A stretch of DNA of 7,265 nt from a virus. Its lineage: Duplodnaviria; Heunggongvirae; Uroviricota; Caudoviricetes. The stretch is taken from the IMG/VR virus record IMGVR_UViG_2609459803_000004, one strand, 5' to 3'. The position numbers and the translations under genes are program-made. Below are positions 1 through 7,265 of this stretch, in pieces. The notes beneath the pieces are model-generated. The model ran no database searches and was not told where the DNA came from. It saw only the letters and a list, made by a program, of their open reading frames with translations. Within the stretch, counting starts at the first letter, position 1, and every line of letters starts with the position of its first letter.

Positions 1-258
1 ATGCAAACCGTTATTTTTGGTCGTTCGGGTTGCCCTTACTGTGTGCGTGCAAAAGATCTGGCTGAGAAATTGAGCAATGAACGCGATGATTTTCAGTATC
101 AGTATGTAGATATTCGTGCGGAAGGGATCACTAAAGAAGATCTACAACAAAAGGCAGGTAAACCCGTAGAAACCGTGCCGCAGATTTTTGTCGATCAGCA
201 ACATATCGGCGGCTATACCGATTTTGCTGCATGGGGGAAAGAAAATCTGGACGCCTGA
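1..258 (+). CDS. grxA: Glutaredoxin 1
   Basis: 85-aa ORF starting at window position 1; the translation has the CPYC active-site motif and reads as near-identical to E. coli GrxA from memory. Followed by a hairpin terminator. Confidence 0.93.
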   Translation: MQTVIFGRSGCPYCVRAKDLAEKLSNERDDFQYQYVDIRAEGITKEDLQQKAGKPVETVPQIFVDQQHIGGYTDFAAWGKENLDA

Positions 259-265
259 TCGTCTG

Positions 266-300
266 ACAAGCCCTCGCGTTGAGGGCTTTACTGATTTTTT
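266..300 (+). terminator. Rho-independent terminator downstream of grxA, shared with the convergent ybjM 3' end
   Basis: Inverted repeat aagccctc (268-275) / gagggctt (281-288) with a 5-nt loop, followed by a T-run at 295-300. The ybjM stop codon (288-290) lies inside the stem. Confidence 0.6.
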
Positions 301-665
301 CTGTGCTGTGGTTTAAACAAACTACTGATAAATAAGAAACACAGTGCCCCCAGCGCACACCAGAACACCGCGCTTAGTAACCATGCCAGCTCTTGCCAGA
401 ATGAGCGCGTCGGTGAAAAAAACAGCCGCATAATGAGCATCGAACAGGGTGCCGCCAGCATTGCGCCAAACAGAGGTTTCAGGACTTCTCTACGCTGTGA
501 AAAGAAGCTGGCGACTGCTCCAGGAAGAATGAAAAATAGCAAGCCGATTTCAGGATGCCCGGCAGCCCGAAAAGCGCCTTTCATGTGCGTCGCCAGAAAA
601 AGGCACACCACAATGAAGAGGACAAAACAGCAGATTGCCCCCGCCCAACGTTGTTTATGTTTCAC
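288..665 (-). CDS. ybjM: Small inner-membrane protein YbjM
   Basis: 125-aa hydrophobic ORF, GTG start at 665 preceded by a perfect AGGAGG Shine-Dalgarno with 5-nt spacing (minus strand). Length and sequence match my recollection of E. coli YbjM; convergent with grxA as in E. coli. Confidence 0.85.
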   Translation of the reverse strand: MKHKQRWAGAICCFVLFIVVCLFLATHMKGAFRAAGHPEIGLLFFILPGAVASFFSQRREVLKPLFGAMLAAPCSMLIMRLFFSPTRSFWQELAWLLSAVFWCALGALCFLFISSLFKPQHRKNQ

Positions 666-934: not shown

Positions 935-2620
935 GTGAATATAAACGTCGCCGAATTGTTAAATGGGAATTACATTCTGTTATTATTTGTGGTCCTCGCG
1001 CTTGGGCTATGTCTCGGAAAGTTACGACTTGGTTCGATCCAACTGGGTAATTCCATTGGCGTTTTAGTCGTATCGCTGTTATTAGGCCAACAACATTTCA
1101 GCATTAACACCGATGCGCTTAATCTTGGCTTTATGCTGTTTATTTTCTGCGTCGGGGTCGAAGCCGGACCGAACTTTTTTTCCATTTTTTTTCGCGATGG
1201 GAAAAATTACCTAATGTTAGCACTGGTGATGGTTGGCAGTGCGCTGGTGATCGCCTTAGGGTTAGGTAAGCTGTTTGGCTGGGATATTGGCCTGACGGCC
1301 GGTATGTTAGCAGGCTCTATGACGTCGACACCGGTTCTGGTCGGTGCTGGCGATACACTGCGTCATTCCGGCATGGAAAGCAGGCAGCTCTCACTGGCAC
1401 TGGATAATCTGAGCCTCGGGTATGCCTTAACCTATTTAATCGGTCTGGTGAGTTTGATTGTTGGTGCGCGTTACTTGCCGAAATTGCAGCATCAGGACTT
1501 ACAGACCAGCGCCCAGCAAATCGCCCGCGAACGTGGCCTGGACACTGATGCCAACCGTAAGGTTTATTTACCGGTGATCCGCGCCTATCGCGTCGGCCCG
1601 GAACTGGTGGCCTGGACCGACGGCAAAAATCTGCGTGAACTGGGTATTTATCGACAAACCGGCTGCTACATTGAACGTATTCGACGTAACGGGATTCTGG
1701 CAAATCCAGACGGTGATGCCGTGCTACAAATGGGCGATGAAATAGCGTTGGTAGGCTATCCCGACGCCCATGCCCGACTCGATCCCAGCTTCCGTAACGG
1801 TAAAGAAGTTTTCGATCGTGACCTTCTCGACATGCGTATCGTCACTGAAGAAGTGGTCGTTAAAAACCATAACGCTGTAGGTAAACGTCTCGCACAACTG
1901 AAGTTGACCGATCACGGTTGCTTCCTTAACCGCGTCATTCGTAGCCAGATTGAGATGCCGATAGATGACAACGTCGTGCTTAACAAAGGTGACGTTTTAC
2001 AAGTCAGCGGCGATGCCCGCCGCGTAAAAACCATCGCCGATCGCATCGGCTTTATCTCGATTCACAGCCAGGTCACTGACCTGCTGGCATTCTGCGCCTT
2101 CTTTGTTATTGGGCTGATGATCGGGATGATCACCTTCCAGTTCAGCACATTCAGTTTCGGCATGGGGAACGCTGCCGGGTTGTTATTCGCCGGAATTATG
2201 CTGGGCTTTATGCGTGCTAACCACCCGACCTTCGGTTACATTCCGCAGGGTGCATTAAGCATGGTGAAAGAGTTCGGCTTGATGGTGTTTATGGCAGGCG
2301 TTGGTCTGAGCGCCGGTAGCGGTATTAATAACGGCCTGGGCGCGATTGGCGGTCAGATGTTGATTGCCGGATTGATTGTCAGTCTGGTGCCCGTGGTTAT
2401 CTGTTTCTTGTTCGGTGCTTATGTATTGCGAATGAACCGCGCGCTGTTGTTCGGCGCAATGATGGGCGCACGTACCTGCGCGCCGGCAATGGAGATCATC
2501 AGTGATACAGCTCGCAGTAACATCCCGGCGCTGGGCTATGCGGGCACCTATGCAATCGCCAACGTCCTGCTGACGCTGGCAGGGACAATCATCGTCATGG
2601 TATGGCCAGGATTAGGATAA
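935..2620 (+). CDS. ybjL: Putative transporter YbjL (AAE/YidE-type membrane protein with central cytoplasmic RCK_C/TrkA-C-like domains)
   Basis: 561-aa ORF with a GTG start. Hydrophobic N- and C-terminal halves flank a soluble central region; the translation matches my recollection of E. coli YbjL over its full length. Confidence 0.92.
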
Positions 2621-2663
2621 AACTGAAGTTGCCCTGAAAATGAAATTTTTTTGCACAACCGCA

Positions 2664-2690
2664 GAACTTTTCCGCAGGGCATCAGTCTTA
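2664..2690 (+). promoter_or_regulatory. Sigma-E (RpoE)-type promoter of rybB
   Basis: GAACTT at 2664-2669 (-35 element), 16-nt spacer, TCTTA at 2686-2690 (-10 element), with the RybB 5' end (G at 2697) 7 nt downstream. Fits the sigma-E consensus (GGAACTT / TCNAA class) from established knowledge. Confidence 0.55.
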
Positions 2691-2696
2691 ATTAGT

Positions 2697-2775
2697 GCCA
2701 CTGCTTTTCTTTGATGTCCCCATTTTGTGGAGCCCATCAACCCCGCCATTTCGGTTCAAGGTTGATGGGTTTTTT
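2697..2775 (+). ncRNA. rybB: RybB small regulatory RNA (sigma-E-dependent, Hfq-binding repressor of outer-membrane protein mRNAs)
   Basis: Sequence gccactgcttttctttgatgtcccc... matches the RybB sRNA as I recall it, including the conserved 5' seed. It ends in a 10-bp perfect stem (cccatcaacc 2733-2742 / ggttgatggg 2760-2769) plus a T6 run (2770-2775). Position downstream of ybjL on the same strand as in E. coli. Confidence 0.85.
2733..2775 (+). terminator. Intrinsic terminator of rybB
   Basis: 10-bp perfect GC-rich stem with an internally paired loop, followed by tttttt. Confidence 0.8.
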
Positions 2776-2833
2776 GTTGCCTGAAATTTAAGCTGTTTAA
2801 AATCATGATGTTAGAAGCACTGTTTTTTAACGA

Positions 2834-2855
2834 TGGCGACAAAATGGCGGCAGCG
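2834..2855. repeat. Left copy of a 22-bp direct repeat (tggcgacaaaatggcggcagcg); candidate att core at the ogr-side prophage junction
   Basis: Matches 7226-7247 at 21 of 22 positions (a at 2844 versus g at 7236), in the same orientation. Directly abuts the ogr stop codon (2856-2858). Confidence 0.5.
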
Positions 2856-3074
2856 TCAAAGAGAGAGCGCCACCTGTCCTGATTTCATTGGATGCGGCTG
2901 AACCGGATTTGACTCTTTTGGCGTTGCAATCGAACGAACAAAAGTTTCATGGGTAACAAAAGTATGGCTGCAGTTAATGTTCTGGCACTGGTTGTAACGC
3001 TCTTTGGTCAATGAAGATACCTGAAAACTGCTGCGAGTATGGGCGGCACTTCCACACAGTGGGCAAATCATCAT
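2856..3074 (-). CDS. ogr: Ogr/Delta-family zinc-finger late-gene transcriptional activator
   Basis: Translation MICPLCGSAAHTRSS...KERYNQCQNINCSHTF... carries the C-x2-C...C-x4-C zinc-finger pattern of P2 Ogr. Proposed ATG at 3074 has a GGGAGA Shine-Dalgarno 9 nt upstream and gives 72 aa, the size I recall for P2 Ogr. The ORF track's longer version starts at GTG 3107. Confidence 0.85.
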   Translation of the reverse strand: MMICPLCGSAAHTRSSFQVSSLTKERYNQCQNINCSHTFVTHETFVRSIATPKESNPVQPHPMKSGQVALSL

Positions 3075-3164
3075 TTTTCGAGTTCTCCCCATTTTTGCTA
3101 AATTCACAATAATGATACCGCATTATTCCATTTTGCAAACTTAAAAGTTCTCCATTGCGAAGAA

Positions 3165-3635
3165 TCATTCCATTTCGAAATCATCAATCCTCACTTCAAG
3201 CTCCAGACTGGTCGTAAAACCGTTATCCGGGCTGACGGTATGCGTCAGAGTCGTAATGGTCCATTCCGCATCATCTATCGGCTGTTTAAAACCACTGACC
3301 TTCACAGGCATTTCCGTGTAGAGATCTGCCCGCCCTTCTGCCAGTTGTAGCGAGAATGACGCAACGCCACGTTGCAGGCGTTCCCACTGCATTTTCGCCG
3401 CCCGTTCGGCGTTGCTCCGGTTGGCATAGGTGCGATTAAGTACCAGCACGTTTTCATCTGTACCCACCAGGTAATCGCCCTGCTTCGCTTCCGGCTCTTT
3501 CTTCTGCTTCTTAGTCCTGCGCTTACGCTTCACCGTGGTGCTTTCTTTCTTCGCGGGTTCACCAGGCGTAACCTTGCTGCCAGTTCCCGGCACTCTTTTT
3601 TGCTCATACTGTGCAGGTAATCGTGCAACTCCTTG
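3165..3635 (-). pseudogene. 3' fragment of P2-family tail gene D (gpD C-terminal ~150 residues), no intact 5' end
   Basis: Lys/Arg-rich stretch followed by DYLVGT..NVL...YAN...RAAK...QRGVA.F...GFK..ID...W pattern, which matches my recollection of the gpD C-terminus. Sits immediately upstream of ogr on the same strand, as D precedes ogr in P2. The frame is open up to a stop at 3636-3638 and overlaps the end of the gene-A fragment in another frame. Confidence 0.6.
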
Positions 3636-4351
3636 TCATCCATGCGGGTAATATCCGTTCTGGTGTCCCCATCAGCTGATTTATCTTTCTCCTGTTGGTT
3701 CAAATTTTCAGCAAGGGGACAGTTATTGCCACGAGTCCAAGGGGCGCAAGCGCCCTGGTCGGCTACCGCCTCCTGAACGTCAACGGCCTTACGAACCATT
3801 TTCCACTTCACTGCATGAGTGCAGATCTTGCCCTCTGAAATGGGTGACCAGATGCCATAAATACGAATACCGTGATCGCCATAGGCGGTCGGCTCTTCGT
3901 TGATTTCATAAGCGGTTCTGATGAGGTGATATTTACGGGGAACCAGTACGCCGCCCTGCTTCATGATGTAGGAGGCAAAACAACCAGCATCAGCAGCAGC
4001 CAGGATGGCATCAAGGCGCGGGTTATCCAGTACCGGCGCACCTGCTTTTTTGTCCCCCTGTTGCCTTGCCGCCTGACCAGCCAGCAATCGCAGTTCACGG
4101 TAAGCCTGACGCCCCGGAATGCCAAAGAAGCGGAATTGCTGAACACGATGCAGAGACGCCCAGGCATTAACGTATTCAGCGTTATCACGCAGGGATTTAC
4201 CCGTTTCCTTGCTGATCTCACCAGCCAGACCACGCCCGTCAATGTTCTTACTGATGTATTTCGCGATGTAGCTTGTTGGCGTACCTTTGCGCGGGTTTGC
4301 CGGGCTTTGCTTTACCAGCAGCGATGCAAATGATGGTTCTTTCGTCAGCAT
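3530..4351 (-). pseudogene. Truncated gene-A-type rolling-circle replication initiator (retains the Tyr catalytic motif, lacks the N-terminal HUH part)
   Basis: Motif [14 protein letters not shown] matches the double-tyrosine active-site motif of phiX174/P2 gpA-type initiators (YxxKYxxK). No HUH motif lies upstream within the ORF. An ATG at 4351 has a GAGG Shine-Dalgarno overlapping the cII stop codon; the ORF track starts at GTG 4381. The 3' end runs out of frame into the D fragment. Confidence 0.7.
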
Positions 4352-4358
4352 AAGTACC

Positions 4359-4874
4359 TCACAGCAAACCAAATGAAGCACCGAGGCCAGTCACGGTATC
4401 AACTGCACTCGCCATCGCAGGGTTAGCCTGTAAACGGGCCTGCAATGAAACAGCAGCCAACGCCATCAGTCGTGTTACAGAGTTAATGCTGCTGATAGCA
4501 TCACGACGGCCTGCACTGGTTTTTACATCGCCAGATGCCGCACCTGCAGCAACACGCCCGATCTCTGCGGTTGCACTCATGACGTAATGTGGCAGTTTCT
4601 CTTTTGCCACCTCATTAATCGGTACACATGGCAGGCAGTGAATCTGAGCCAGAAAACCATCTACTAGCGTTGAATCTTCAGTCAGATCGGTAAGCAACCA
4701 GATTTCTGGTGCGGTTAATAAATGAGGTTGAGCTGGGTTCAGCTTGTTCCGCAGAATCTGCACATTCATGCCTGCACGTTCTGCCAGTTGCACCAGGTTG
4801 TGGCGCAGTGCGAATGCACGACAGGCTTCATCAAAATGTGGATGTTTGGAAACTTGGTAATCAAACATAGTCAA
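4359..4874 (-). CDS. cII: Phage 186-type CII lysogeny-establishment activator
   Basis: 171-aa ORF; translation ([19 protein letters not shown]...[27 protein letters not shown]...) matches my recollection of 186 CII (about 169 aa) along its length. GAGG Shine-Dalgarno 8 nt upstream of the ATG at 4874. Confidence 0.8.
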
Positions 4875-4887
4875 TGCCTCTGATGTA

Positions 4888-4929
4888 TTTCAGAATCGAA
4901 CTAATTAAGGTTTAGATTGCATTCTGAAA
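4888..4929. promoter_or_regulatory. 9-bp perfect inverted repeat (tttcagaat / attctgaaa) spanning the apl-cII junction
   Basis: Arms at 4888-4896 and 4921-4929, separated by 24 bp, overlapping the apl 3' end and the cII leader. Candidate protein-binding site or RNA structure; no U-run follows, so it is not an intrinsic terminator. Confidence 0.3.
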
Positions 4930-5122
4930 GCGCATCAACGGTCATGGCTGCTATGTTGATCATCACTTTTTCGCGTTTTTTATCTTTGCGCAAACGGTGA
5001 CGGATAAGGCGTCCATCAGCCAACATGTCATTGATAGTATCGATGGACAGCCCTGTCAGCTCGCTATAGCGTTCAATAGTCACATGAGGCGTGGTAAGAG
5101 TGATTGAAATGTTAGGTCTCAT
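4901..5122 (-). CDS. Apl/Cox-like small DNA-binding regulator (excisionase / lytic-side repressor analogue)
   Basis: 73-aa basic ORF with a helix-turn-helix-like segment (ERYSELTGLSIDTINDMLADGRL). It is the first gene of the operon transcribed away from cI, immediately upstream of cII, as apl is in phage 186. Confidence 0.5.
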   Translation of the reverse strand: MRPNISITLTTPHVTIERYSELTGLSIDTINDMLADGRLIRHRLRKDKKREKVMINIAAMTVDALSECNLNLN

Positions 5123-5247
5123 GATGCAACATTCCTCGTTTAATGATGATTAATCAGGACGAATACGAATCGTTTGTATTTTGTGAACACCATAAACATA
5201 CGATCGCACAGTGAAATCGTCAAGACAAAAGTTCACTTGGAGTGACC
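5123..5247. promoter_or_regulatory. Immunity switch region between the apl-like gene and cI (promoters and operators)
   Basis: AT-rich 125-bp region containing the perfect palindrome tgattaatca (5147-5156), the inverted pair gtgaac (5183-5188) / gttcac (5231-5236), and additional gtgaa/gtgac motifs at 5211 and 5242. Confidence 0.5.
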
Positions 5248-5817
5248 ATGAATTTGGAGAAAGGCGGACGAGGCGCTATAGAGCGCATGGTAGAAGCTTA
5301 TGGATTCAAGACTCGACAGGCGTTGTGCGATCATTTAGGAATCTCTAAAAGTACACTCGCCACACGCTACATGCGTGACTCATTCCCAGCAGAATGGGTA
5401 ATCCAGTGCGCCCTTGAAACAGGCACTTCGCTTAATTGGCTCACAACCGGGCATGGTTCAAAGCAAACTTCAGGTAATACAAATACTATGGAAGTTGCTA
5501 AATATGTATTATCTGATGGGGCTTTGTGTGAAGACGGTTTTTATATTTTCGATAGAGAATTTCTACCGTCGGCATTCAAGAATCTTTTTGTAATCACAGA
5601 TAATAATTCTGAATTTATTTGTGATAAGGAATTTGATGATATACGTGATGGTAAATGGGTAATAAGTATTGATGGCGAAATAACGATCCGTGACATTACT
5701 CGTTTACCCGGTGGAAGAATCTTCGTCGAGGGTGGAAACAGAGCCTTCGAATGTAAGATAGAAGACATTGAAATAATTGGTAAAATTATAAGTTTAACAG
5801 TCAAGTATGTTAAATAG
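5248..5817 (+). CDS. cI: Phage 186-type CI immunity repressor (N-terminal HTH, C-terminal oligomerisation-type domain)
   Basis: N-terminus ...AYGFKTRQALCDHLGISKSTLATRYMRDSFPAEWVIQCALETGTSLNWLTTGHG matches the 186 CI-family HTH domain as I recall it. Size (189-191 aa) is close to 186 CI. GGAG Shine-Dalgarno 6 nt upstream of the ATG at 5248; the ORF track begins at GTG 5242. Confidence 0.8.
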   Translation: MNLEKGGRGAIERMVEAYGFKTRQALCDHLGISKSTLATRYMRDSFPAEWVIQCALETGTSLNWLTTGHGSKQTSGNTNTMEVAKYVLSDGALCEDGFYIFDREFLPSAFKNLFVITDNNSEFICDKEFDDIRDGKWVISIDGEITIRDITRLPGGRIFVEGGNRAFECKIEDIEIIGKIISLTVKYVK

Positions 5818-5832
5818 TACCGGGAGGAAACT

Positions 5833-6024
5833 ATGCTTGGTAAGGTATTTTTTGTGGTTTTATCATGTTCTTTGTTATTAAACCCACTAACTACCTATGC
5901 TAGAAATTATCCCTGCTCAGGGAAAAAGGGAGGTGTTTCTCACTGTACCTCAGATGGCAAATTCGTTTGCAATGATGGAACTATTAGTAAATCCAAAAAA
6001 ATCTGTACTAAAAACTCACGATAA
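5833..6024 (+). CDS. Small secreted cationic Cys-rich protein of unknown function
   Basis: 63-aa ORF with a strong GGGAGGA Shine-Dalgarno 4 nt upstream. Predicted signal peptide ([23 protein letters not shown], AxA-like cleavage after TYA), then a ~40-aa Lys-rich mature peptide with 4 Cys. AT-rich, and placed between cI and int. Confidence 0.55.
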
Positions 6025-6212
6025 CTTTTGCTTTTATATCTGCGTCTAAAATAAAAATGAGCCGCAGGTTAACCGCAAAAGTTACATGCTCACATAGCAA
6101 AAAGAATAGCCAACTTCATTATGGCTTCAGTGAGATGTATGGTCGTAGGATTTCATACATTGACACTGGTTATACATACAGTAAAAATGCTCTCTACTGG
6201 AGGGCATTTTTT

Positions 6213-7265
6213 ATGGCAGTACGAAAACTCACCACAGGGAAATGGCTTTGCGAATGTTACCCCGCCGGACGAAGTGGGCGTCGTGTGCGTAAACAATTCG
6301 CCACCAAAGGCGAAGCTCTGGCTTTTGAGCGTCACACTATGGAAGAAACCGAATCAAAGCCATGGCTGGGCGAATCAGTGGATCGTCGAACCCTGAAAGA
6401 CGTGGTTGAGCTATGGTTCAAACTACATGGTAAATCTCTGACTGCTGGGCAGCATGTCTATGACAAATTGCTGCTGATGGTTGGCGCTCTGGGCAATCCT
6501 CTTGCAACCGATCTCACCTCTAAAATGTTTGCCCACTATCGAGATAAACGCCTGACAGGCGAGATCTACTTCAGCGAGAAATGGAAGAAAGGAGCAAGCC
6601 CGGTCACCATTAACCTGGAGCAAAGCTATCTAAGTAGTGTTTTTAGCGAACTATCCCGTCTGGGCGAATGGTCGTATCCGAACCCACTGGAGAACATGCG
6701 AAAATTCACCATCGCAGAAAAAGAGATGGCATGGCTTACCCATGAGCAGATTGTTGAATTACTGGCTGATTGCAAACGTCAGGACCCAATTCTAGCACTG
6801 GTAGTTAAGATATGCTTAAGCACAGGCGCACGCTGGCGAGAAGCCGTAAATCTTACTCGTTCACAGGTGACCAAATACCGAATTACCTTTGTAAGAACGA
6901 AGGGGAAGAAAAACAGAAGTATCCCTATCAGTAAAGAGCTTTACGAAGAGATCATGGCGCTTGATGGATTCAATTTCTTCACAGACTGCTATTTTCAATT
7001 TTTATCCGTGATGGAAAAAACGTCTATCGTGCTCCCTCGCGGTCAACTCACACACGTTCTGCGCCATACGTTTGCGGCGCACTTCATGATGTCGGGTGGA
7101 AACATTCTGGCCTTACAAAAAATTCTCGGACACCACGATATAAAAATGACTATGCGTTACGCACATCTGGCACCGGATCATCTGGAAACGGCGCTCCGTT
7201 TCAATCCTCTGGCAACGCTGCCAAGTGGCGACAAAGTGGCGGCAGCGGTTGGCATTACCCCGTAA
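6213..7265 (+). CDS. int: P2-family tyrosine integrase
   Basis: N-terminus MAVRKLTTGKWLCECYP...RVRKQFATKGEALAFE and C-terminal catalytic region (LSTGARWREA; HVLRHTFAAHFMMSGGNILALQKILGH...MRYAHLAP with the R, H-x-x-R and Y residues) match P2 Int-type recombinases. GGAGGG Shine-Dalgarno 8 nt upstream of the ATG at 6213. The ORF track's 402-aa version from 6057 is probably a spurious N-terminal extension. Confidence 0.9.
   Translation: MAVRKLTTGKWLCECYPAGRSGRRVRKQFATKGEALAFERHTMEETESKPWLGESVDRRTLKDVVELWFKLHGKSLTAGQHVYDKLLLMVGALGNPLATDLTSKMFAHYRDKRLTGEIYFSEKWKKGASPVTINLEQSYLSSVFSELSRLGEWSYPNPLENMRKFTIAEKEMAWLTHEQIVELLADCKRQDPILALVVKICLSTGARWREAVNLTRSQVTKYRITFVRTKGKKNRSIPISKELYEEIMALDGFNFFTDCYFQFLSVMEKTSIVLPRGQLTHVLRHTFAAHFMMSGGNILALQKILGHHDIKMTMRYAHLAPDHLETALRFNPLATLPSGDKVAAAVGITP
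7226..7247. repeat. Right copy of the 22-bp direct repeat (tggcgacaaagtggcggcagcg); candidate att core inside the int 3' end
   Basis: 21 of 22 identity with 2834-2855. Lies in the codons for ...GDKVAAA, 6 codons before the int stop. Confidence 0.5.

Follow-up and report, generated by a model that had tools for sequence, protein, structure and literature searches.

The stretch at positions 2697–2856 of the 7,265-nt sequence analysed here (the window) very probably consists of an intact rybB small RNA gene and the attL junction of a decayed P2-like (Peduoviridae) prophage of the 186/Fels-2 type, with the attachment core in the end of rybB and a nearby 22-nt direct repeat representing doublets of integrase arm sites. 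The initial annotation had placed a P2-like prophage remnant against rybB, and this is borne out by phage genes with Pfam matches that begin directly after the intact small RNA gene. It had also read the 22-nt repeat as the att core and had the insertion start 59 bp past the rybB terminator, and here our results differ: the crossover lies in 2766–2778, and the sequence is already phage DNA from 2791.

On the host side, the window carries grxA (1–258, plus strand), ybjM (288–665, minus strand), ybjL (935–2620, plus strand), and then rybB (2700–2778, plus strand), in the conserved position downstream of ybjL that the gene also has in K-12. The rybB gene is intact, covering positions 1–79 of the 79-position Rfam model RF00110 with a score of 105.3 bits (gathering threshold 40, E-value 1.4e-21), and it matches the sequence of K-12 rybB (b4417); its terminator hairpin was folded at 2731–2771. 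Window positions 2621–2790, which include the promoter region, are identical to the corresponding sequence of L003 and L004, both genomes with an empty site, and the RybB promoter, transcript, and terminator are unchanged relative to empty-site genomes. In K-12, rcdA ends only 19 bp from the 3′ end of rybB, and the two genes are convergent. Three genomes with an empty site, K-12, O157:H7 86-24, and the UPEC strain SCAID URN1, are colinear with the window to 2778–2790 and then go straight to rcdA; after the break they read tctactaccctgcaacc... (the rcdA 3′ end), whereas the window reads agctgtttaaaatcatg...

The same break points recur across the species. Elsewhere among 5,426 complete E. coli genomes, homology with the window breaks at 2778 or 2790, and a reciprocal query with the K-12 sequence gave the same points. 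The 3′ flank of the small RNA gene had been suggested as the integration target; the position of these breaks and a core made of the last 13 nt of rybB place the target at the 3′ end of the gene. A count of occupied versus empty sites had also been proposed: the rybB-ogr-D junction of the window was found in 1,115 of the 5,426 genomes (junction query), and rybB and rcdA were contiguous, hence empty, in 4,227 of them (K-12 reciprocal query). Positions 2791–2833 and the adjoining 22-mer occurred in none of the empty sites examined.

The sequence TGGGTTTTTTGTT, accompanied by 12 imperfectly matching nt, is the only block common to attL, attB, attR, and attP. It constitutes the final 13 nt of the 79-nt rybB gene, that is, the end of the terminator stem and the U-tract. 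The attL core accordingly spans 2766–2790, with the 13-nt identity block at 2766–2778 and the imperfect 12-nt extension GCCTGAAATTTA at 2779–2790. This extension, on the 3′ side of the block, is polymorphic and tracks the right-hand flank. We mapped the crossover in three genomes in which both junctions are readable (the identical contig L106, CP122904/L016, and E. coli HS); in these, the 12 nt are phage-type at attL (GCCTGAAATTTA or GTCTGAAATTTA) and host-type at attR (ATCTAAAACTTA or ATCTAAAATTTA), and the exchange therefore occurred to the left of the extension, inside TGGGTTTTTTGTT. The crossover lies within the 13-nt block at 2766–2778, a position given to the block and not to the individual staggered cuts.

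The last codon of the window is the stop of int, and the attR core is found 75 nt past its end. Because the window stops these 75 nt short of attR, the true core could not have been recognized from the window. The right junction can be read in contig JNMQ01000010.1 of a draft assembly (GCA_000700425.1), which is 100% identical to the window over all 7,265 nt: there, the int stop is followed by 75 nt of phage DNA, then by TGGGTTTTTTGTT ATCTAAAACTTA, and then by rcdA. The occupied relatives BL21(DE3) and E300010 likewise have the int stop, ~75–100 nt of non-host DNA, TGGGTTTTTTGTT with 12 further nt, and rcdA. Phage DNA extends 93 nt past 7247, comprising 7248–7265 and the 75 nt outside the window. 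The record of Klebsiella phage 4LV2017 (KY271398) puts a 19-bp att site at this same block, immediately behind a full copy of Klebsiella rybB. A literature search linking rybB with attB returned nothing relevant.

The layout of attP gives the most direct view of which sequences belong to the phage. Contiguous attP was found in two independent sequences, Klebsiella phage KP12, a partial clone with an odd taxonomy label, and the IMG/VR contig UViG_3300018486_000049, and these two make up the attP sample. Both have the order int 3′ end with TGGCGACAAAGTGGCGGCAGCG, 93 bp, TGGGTTTTTTGTTGYCTGAAATTTA, 43 bp, TGGCGACAAATTGGCGGCAGAG, and the ogr stop. Such an arrangement, with int and ogr side by side, is possible only in an excised or packaged form. 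Since both copies of the 22-mer are present in one attP, where they flank a different shared block, both are phage DNA, one in each arm. The P′ arm, from the core to ogr, corresponds to window 2791–2855; it is without a counterpart in empty sites, joins the core and the P arm without a break in KP12 and the IMG/VR contig, and is, together with ogr, 97% conserved in Klebsiella phages. Within the P′ arm, an IHF-like site at 2801–2813 has one mismatch to the consensus, a kind of match that occurs near chance level. The arms were examined for binding sites of IHF and the excisionase Apl, for which direct repeats in the P arm (AACTTATTGTTTT) are candidates only. A small phage hairpin, aacccgtttacataaatgggtt, precedes the core block in attP and plausibly terminates int transcription. 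We also considered an int reading frame that crosses the att core and changes its C-terminus on integration; this was ruled out, as the int stop codon precedes the core by 75–78 nt in attR as well as in attP.

The repeat itself is real. Its two copies, TGGCGACAAAATGGCGGCAGCG at 2834–2855 and TGGCGACAAAGTGGCGGCAGCG at 7226–7247, are identical at 21 of 22 positions, with 4e-5 such pairs expected by an analytic estimate for 2600–7265 and none found in 300 shuffles. Each copy coincides with a predicted arm-type Int-binding doublet on the minus strand. The P′ doublet at 2833–2855 consists of TGCCGCCATTT and TGTCGCCATCG at 11-bp spacing, 43 bp from the core; the P doublet at 7225–7247 consists of TGCCGCCACTT and TGTCGCCACTT, also at 11-bp spacing, and lies inside the 3′ coding end of int, 93 bp from the core in attP. 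The motif RTGGCGRCA occurs four times in the window against an expectation of 0.29, always within the doublets (two per 22-mer), and 0 of 200 shuffles reached four. The RefSeq record of phage 186 (NC_001317) gives the arm consensus as YAYCGCCAYTY and has its sites in tandem pairs, spaced by 11 bp, on both flanks of the core. The four arm units of the window, at 2833–2852 and 7225–7244, match this consensus at 8–10 of 11 positions, the lowest being TGTCGCCATCG at 8/11. A closely related 186-type arm consensus, tgccGCCActt, is given by Nilsson et al. (2011; PMC3448106). A near-consensus arm motif, CCCCGCCATTT, was also seen in the loop of the rybB terminator (2741–2751) and was discarded as chance level, since ~1.4 such one-mismatch matches are expected per window.

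The doublets are conserved well beyond this locus. In a survey of species-representative genomes, the doublet and a rybB-type core at 116-nt spacing were present in 15 of the tabulated loci with an Int identity of at least 74%, from about 10 genera (Escherichia, Silvania, Raoultella, Citrobacter, Kluyvera, Klebsiella, Scandinavium, Dryocola, and Serratia); in two Serratia loci among these 15, only the GGGTTTTTT part of the core was matched. Yersinia loci, at 70% Int identity, have variant forms. The 116-nt spacing is kept in three loci in which a cargo ORF (moron) lies between a shortened int and the doublet. Some integrases with 54–56% identity, and without a rybB-type core nearby, still have the doublet at the 3′ end of int, which fits a motif that is read by the conserved N-terminal domain and not a site-specific core. 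In P2, 186, and lambda-type systems, the N-terminal domain of Int binds the arm sites, assembling the intasome. The integrase in the window has both an N-terminal arm-binding domain (Int_N) and a catalytic domain (Phage_integrase). From the consensus match, the layout, and the conservation, we infer that the 22-mers are tandem 186-type arm-binding sites for Int.

We propose that a heterobivalent tyrosine integrase recombined attP with attB, with the last 13 nt of rybB (TGGGTTTTTTGTT) as the exchange region. The attP copy of TGGGTTTTTTGTT sits behind the phage’s own small hairpin and, because attP has its own copy of the 13-nt block, integration rebuilds rybB exactly at attL. At attR, a 13-nt tail of rybB is kept beside rcdA, with the phage hairpin and a T-run facing rcdA, and no host gene is broken. 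The N-terminal domain of Int would contact the P′ doublet next to the ogr stop and the P doublet in the 3′ end of int. The locus is a clean case of a phage that targets a small RNA terminator and rebuilds that terminator exactly.

Three other explanations of the junction have to be weighed against this one. It is exceedingly improbable that the 22-nt repeat is the att core, with integration 59 bp downstream of rybB and host DNA at 2779–2833, even though the repeat is highly non-random and brackets the region from ogr to int. If it were the core, a single 22-mer with contiguous flanks would be expected in the empty site; the empty sites go from the end of rybB to rcdA and lack the 22-mer along with the adjoining 43 and 93 nt. 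In particular, 2791–2833 is missing from all empty sites examined, the 93 nt beyond 7247 are phage and not host, and both copies occur in a single contiguous attP, where they flank another shared block. The repeat also fits the phage 186 arm-type consensus, not a core. The initial annotation had itself named a lack of contiguity between these flanks in empty-site genomes as the result that would count against it, and this is what we found: 2791–2833 and the sequence beyond 7247 are absent from empty sites and are contiguous in the attP of free phage. What stands of its reading is the repeat as a non-random feature, and what falls is the role assigned to it, as the copies lie inside the two attP arms. 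Direct repeats on both sides of a prophage are not necessarily its att core; in this case, the repeat is most consistent with an arm-site doublet.

The 55 bp at 2779–2833 could instead be the scar of an earlier, different element, which would make the locus a tandem or composite island formed by two integrations. Hotspots often gather tandem elements, as with the tandem islands at a tRNA-Leu gene described by Hudson et al. (2014; PMC4048246), and the 12 nt at 2779–2790 are present in some empty sites too. We nonetheless regard two integrations as extremely unlikely, given that, in free attP, 2791–2855 runs uninterrupted into the core and the int-side arm, that the same segment is 97% conserved beside ogr in Klebsiella phages, and that the window has no second integrase and no second att repeat. 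Alternatively, the repeat could have arisen when the int 3′ end was recombined or duplicated (as might happen with the insertion of a moron), which would make it a by-product without a binding function. The region does get rearranged, as the last ~45 bp of int, doublet included, persist behind an inserted ORF, as a non-coding relic, in BL21, HS, E1V33, and others. Yet the ogr-side copy has no int-like sequence beyond the 22 nt, and integrases at 54–56% identity, with no rybB-type core nearby, have the same doublet motif at their 3′ end. Moreover, both copies are at fixed distances from the core across genera, and the relic is kept precisely when int is displaced, which argues for selection on the sites; a functionless by-product is thus very unlikely. 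The preferred reading remains an attL junction with its core in the end of rybB and an Int arm-site doublet on either side in attP.

Beyond attL, the phage genes of the window describe a heavily reduced prophage. The remnant runs from 2779 (the base after the attL block) to a window-equivalent position of 7353 (the end of the attR block), about 4.6 kb, and it keeps the P2/186 gene order (D, ogr, att, int, cI, apl, cII ... A), as in phage 186 across att and in intact relatives. The ogr/B-type late-gene activator (2856–3074, minus strand; Pfam Ogr_Delta, 6.7e-22) corresponds to a CDS annotated by RefSeq in JNQH497, and a promoter-like site lies upstream of it on the minus strand (3139–3112). It is followed by D′, a 3′ fragment of the tail gene D (3165–3560, minus strand), which matches positions 199–302 of 305 of the Pfam Phage_GPD profile and is colinear with the full-length D of JNQH497 to 3560. 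A′, an internal 745-bp piece of the rolling-circle replication gene A (3554–4298, minus strand), has a weak Pfam Phage_GPA match and is 99.87% identical to positions 10115–10859 of the intact prophage L096, inside its gene for an 804-aa A protein. A reading frame at 3530–4381 had been considered as a P4 alpha-like primase of a P4-type satellite, and this was ruled out by the Phage_GPA match and by alignment to gene A of intact relatives.

The control and integration region is better preserved. It includes intact cII (169 aa; 4359–4868, minus strand; Pfam Phage_CP76, 6.8e-42), for which the exact protein is found in intact prophages, and intact cI (189 aa; 5248–5817, plus strand; Pfam Phage_CI_repr, 2.8e-33, and Phage_CI_C, 2.7e-27), which has the same length as in relatives. 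Between them, a 73-aa reading frame (4901–5122, minus strand) had no match in a Pfam scan and is assigned as an apl/cox-like gene by position only: every relative has a gene of the same size at the same place between cI and cII, and it corresponds to apl in the 186 map. Between cI and int lies a 63-aa YdcA-like ORF (5833–6024, plus strand), probably a moron; it had no match in the copy of Pfam that we scanned, and the identical gene in relatives has a precomputed match to PF27300 YdcA. The tyrosine integrase is intact (350 aa; 6213–7265, plus strand; Pfam Int_N, 8.3e-32, and Phage_integrase, 7.2e-22). An identical integrase protein is indexed in 1047 assembly blocks, with rcdA as the next gene in all eight of the places shown.

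Two deletion junctions are visible when the window is compared with intact relatives, among them prophages that are 99.9% identical to its phage DNA (e.g., L096, L098, L101, and L013). At the first (3554–3560), the 3′ region of A is fused to D: in BLAST alignments, D homology ends at 3560 and A homology starts at 3554, with at most 7 bp of microhomology. This deletion extends from 207 nt before the A stop, over cos and the late genes, into D, of which the last ~400 nt are left. At the second (4297–4298), window 4297–7265 corresponds to L096 6572–3604, and window 3554–4298 corresponds to L096 10859–10115. The 3,542 bp lost there contained fil, DUF5347, DUF2732, a traR-like gene, dam, and the first 1.46 kb (5′ part) of A. 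Between them, these two internal deletions cut a prophage of at least some 30 kb down to about 4.6 kb, leaving ogr, D′, A′, cII, apl, cI, the YdcA-like moron, int, and both att sites as decay leftovers. The full complement of structural, lysis, and replication genes of a functional phage is not there, as the late genes are gone except for D′ and ogr, and most of A is gone. Judged from its sequence, the remnant may still be capable of excision, because none of cI, apl, cII, int, and the two att sites looks damaged. None of the 5,426 complete E. coli genomes has a full-length match to the remnant, which was found in three draft contigs only. The identical contig, JNMQ01000010.1, came to light through an exact match to the protein of the A′ fragment ORF (window 3533–4351). 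Separate decay products occur at the same site: in CP122904, a full D is joined near apl, and E300010 has an IS100 insertion. The BL21 copy at rybB has a truncated A and cII, plus the retron Ec86. The locus shows how prophages of a single type, all at this site, have decayed independently and step by step.

The position of ogr raises the question of transcription toward rybB. The minus-strand scan predicted no terminator between the ogr stop (2856) and rybB; the scanner also missed the rybB terminator, the loop of which is too large for its limits, and its negative result is therefore weak. The stretch between ogr and rybB folds no better than shuffled sequences. Antisense read-through into rybB is conceivable because no terminator is predicted after ogr, and with no terminator of its own and a stop codon that abuts the arm sites, transcripts of ogr or the late genes would run antisense through rybB. 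That such transcription takes place, with the state of CI modulating RybB and the sigma-E envelope-stress response, we consider unlikely. A large effect of read-through is weighed against by the unchanged RybB promoter, transcript, and terminator, and by rcdA, which already converges on rybB (19 bp away) in empty sites. In the annotation of phage 186 (NC_001317), the promoter of B, the ogr homologue, is CI-repressed, and the cI reading frame of the remnant is full-length, at 189 aa as in intact relatives. By analogy, ogr of the remnant would be repressed by CI, which would also speak against a large effect. A comparison of the cI-apl spacer with the region upstream of ogr gave one shared operator-like 10-mer with a mismatch only. 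If the effect were real, the choice of integration site would have created a regulatory coupling from phage to host.

Integration of P2/186-like phages at rybB is already known in both E. coli and Klebsiella, and the attP architecture is of the textbook 186 type. Archer et al. (2011; PMC3032704) list three P2-type prophages, Rybb*W, Rybb*B, and Rybb*Cr, with the “rybB ncRNA” as their insertion site, and they assign the ogr-D′ remnant of K-12 to the “cyaR RNA”. The prophages PhiECO1-3 share one integration site (Nilsson et al. 2011; PMC3448106), and we located PhiECO1 of E. coli HS between rcdA and ybjL. In Klebsiella, Hudson et al. (2014; PMC4048246) place the island Kpn38RybB “precisely within the gene for RybB”. 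The present site is hotspot #29 of Hochhauser et al. (2023; PMC10121019), who give Felsduovirus prophages within rybB as its only occupants. Given a published hotspot and a 186-type attP, the finding is an ordinary one, since both its class and its site are already known.

The Rybb* prophages, PhiECO1-3, and the occupants of hotspot #29 share with the window the rybB site between ybjL and rcdA and the same layout of int, cI, cII, ogr, and D, and the BL21 and HS copies align to the window at 95–99%. The window differs from the Rybb* and PhiECO prophages in being a 4.6-kb remnant with two specific deletions, whereas the BL21 copy carries its retron and other deletions. Kpn38RybB and phage 4LV2017 have the same target and a P′ arm and ogr that are 97% identical; in contrast to the window, they belong to a Klebsiella host and are full-length, viable or inducible phages.

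Phage 186 offers the closest model for the attachment site. Its attP has the same order of B/ogr, arm doublet, core, arm doublet, and int, with YAYCGCCAYTY at 11-bp tandem spacing, and its core is likewise a copy of the 3′ end of a gene for a small stable RNA, so that this gene is rebuilt. However, the target of 186 is a tRNA-Ile gene (ileY) with a 36-bp common core, and that of the window is a small RNA terminator with a 13-nt identity block; in 186, moreover, B is followed by a terminator, tB, and the B-side arm is longer, whereas in the window the ogr stop abuts the doublet, with no terminator predicted. The parallel with K-12 that the initial annotation drew is correct, since the cryptic prophage PR-X (ogrK and the D′ pseudogene yegZ) is annotated as overlapping the 3′ end of cyaR. 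Like the window, PR-X is a P2-type remnant that keeps ogr and part of D, and its annotated left end overlaps the 3′ end of a gene for an Hfq-dependent small RNA; unlike it, PR-X is located at CyaR, has the P2-type integrase specificity (arm sites tgTGGaCa; Nilsson et al. 2011, PMC3448106), and is a 0.6-kb remnant with no int.

Several relatives share an arrangement in which a shortened integrase gene (int) is followed by a cargo ORF and then by the arm-site doublet, the pair of tandem predicted Int-binding sites. This arrangement is seen at 7599-8100 of the BL21 locus and at 2297-2773 of the E. coli HS locus, and also in the compared loci L021, L030, L038, and L063. Downstream of the cargo ORF, the terminal ~45 bp of the original int gene's 3' end persist as a non-coding relic that includes the doublet, at the usual 116 nt from the core. 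The interval between int and the doublet looks like a spot for cargo insertion, with an arm site under functional constraint as its boundary.

Prophages of this type at rybB have decayed independently in different strains: among CP122904.1, BL21, and E300010, the deletions end at different points, and an insertion of IS100 as well as cargo in the form of retron St85/Ec86 are seen. The remnant in the window itself was found in only three draft contigs. In this remnant, a 283-aa ORF (3530-4381, minus strand; 273 aa if counted from the ATG at 4351) runs through the fragment of gene A and stops 24 nt beyond the deletion junction that joins it to the fragment of tail gene D, so that it ends in D-derived sequence read in another frame than D. 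The ORF is annotated as a protein by gene callers, with a weak Phage_GPA match, and the remaining D fragment is called as a separate, overlapping gene of 122 aa. Between cI and int, a 63-aa ORF (5833-6024, plus strand), whose product contains several cysteines and has an N-terminus resembling a signal peptide, was found in all relatives examined, and is probably a moron expressed in lysogeny. Its precomputed annotation is PF27300 YdcA, although our Pfam scan of the window gave no match for it.

The 12 nt directly 3' of rybB (window 2779-2790) exist as two alleles among empty-site E. coli (L001, L003, and L004): ATCTAAAACTTA in K-12, and GCCTGAAATTTA in O157 and UPEC, the latter being identical to the phage-side version. 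The presence of GCCTGAAATTTA in empty sites could be the footprint of an earlier integration followed by excision, or else plain polymorphism. Two contigs labelled “MAG: Bacillota bacterium” also contain this enterobacterial integrase, at 99% identity and with a rybB-type core in L020 (JAEWTL010000113.1), and at 51% identity in L084 (QAKE01000041.1); the former, at least, very likely entered its MAG as contamination during binning.

Within the rybB terminator loop, CCCCGCCATTT (2741-2751, plus strand) differs by one mismatch from the arm-site consensus of phage 186, but this resemblance is probably a coincidence, because by our own calculation ~1.4 such matches are expected in the window by chance. 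The core in the KP12 attP is bracketed by a 7-bp inverted repeat, CATAAAT / ATTTATG (at 2479-2517 of that locus), whose halves are candidate core-type Int sites. On the int-side arm, AACTTATTGTTTT occurs as two direct-repeat copies ~19 bp apart (window-equivalent 7288-7319 in L106, the window's own genome), which overlap matches to the IHF consensus with one mismatch each. In phage 186, Apl and IHF sites have been mapped on this arm, and the repeats here are candidates for sites of either kind.
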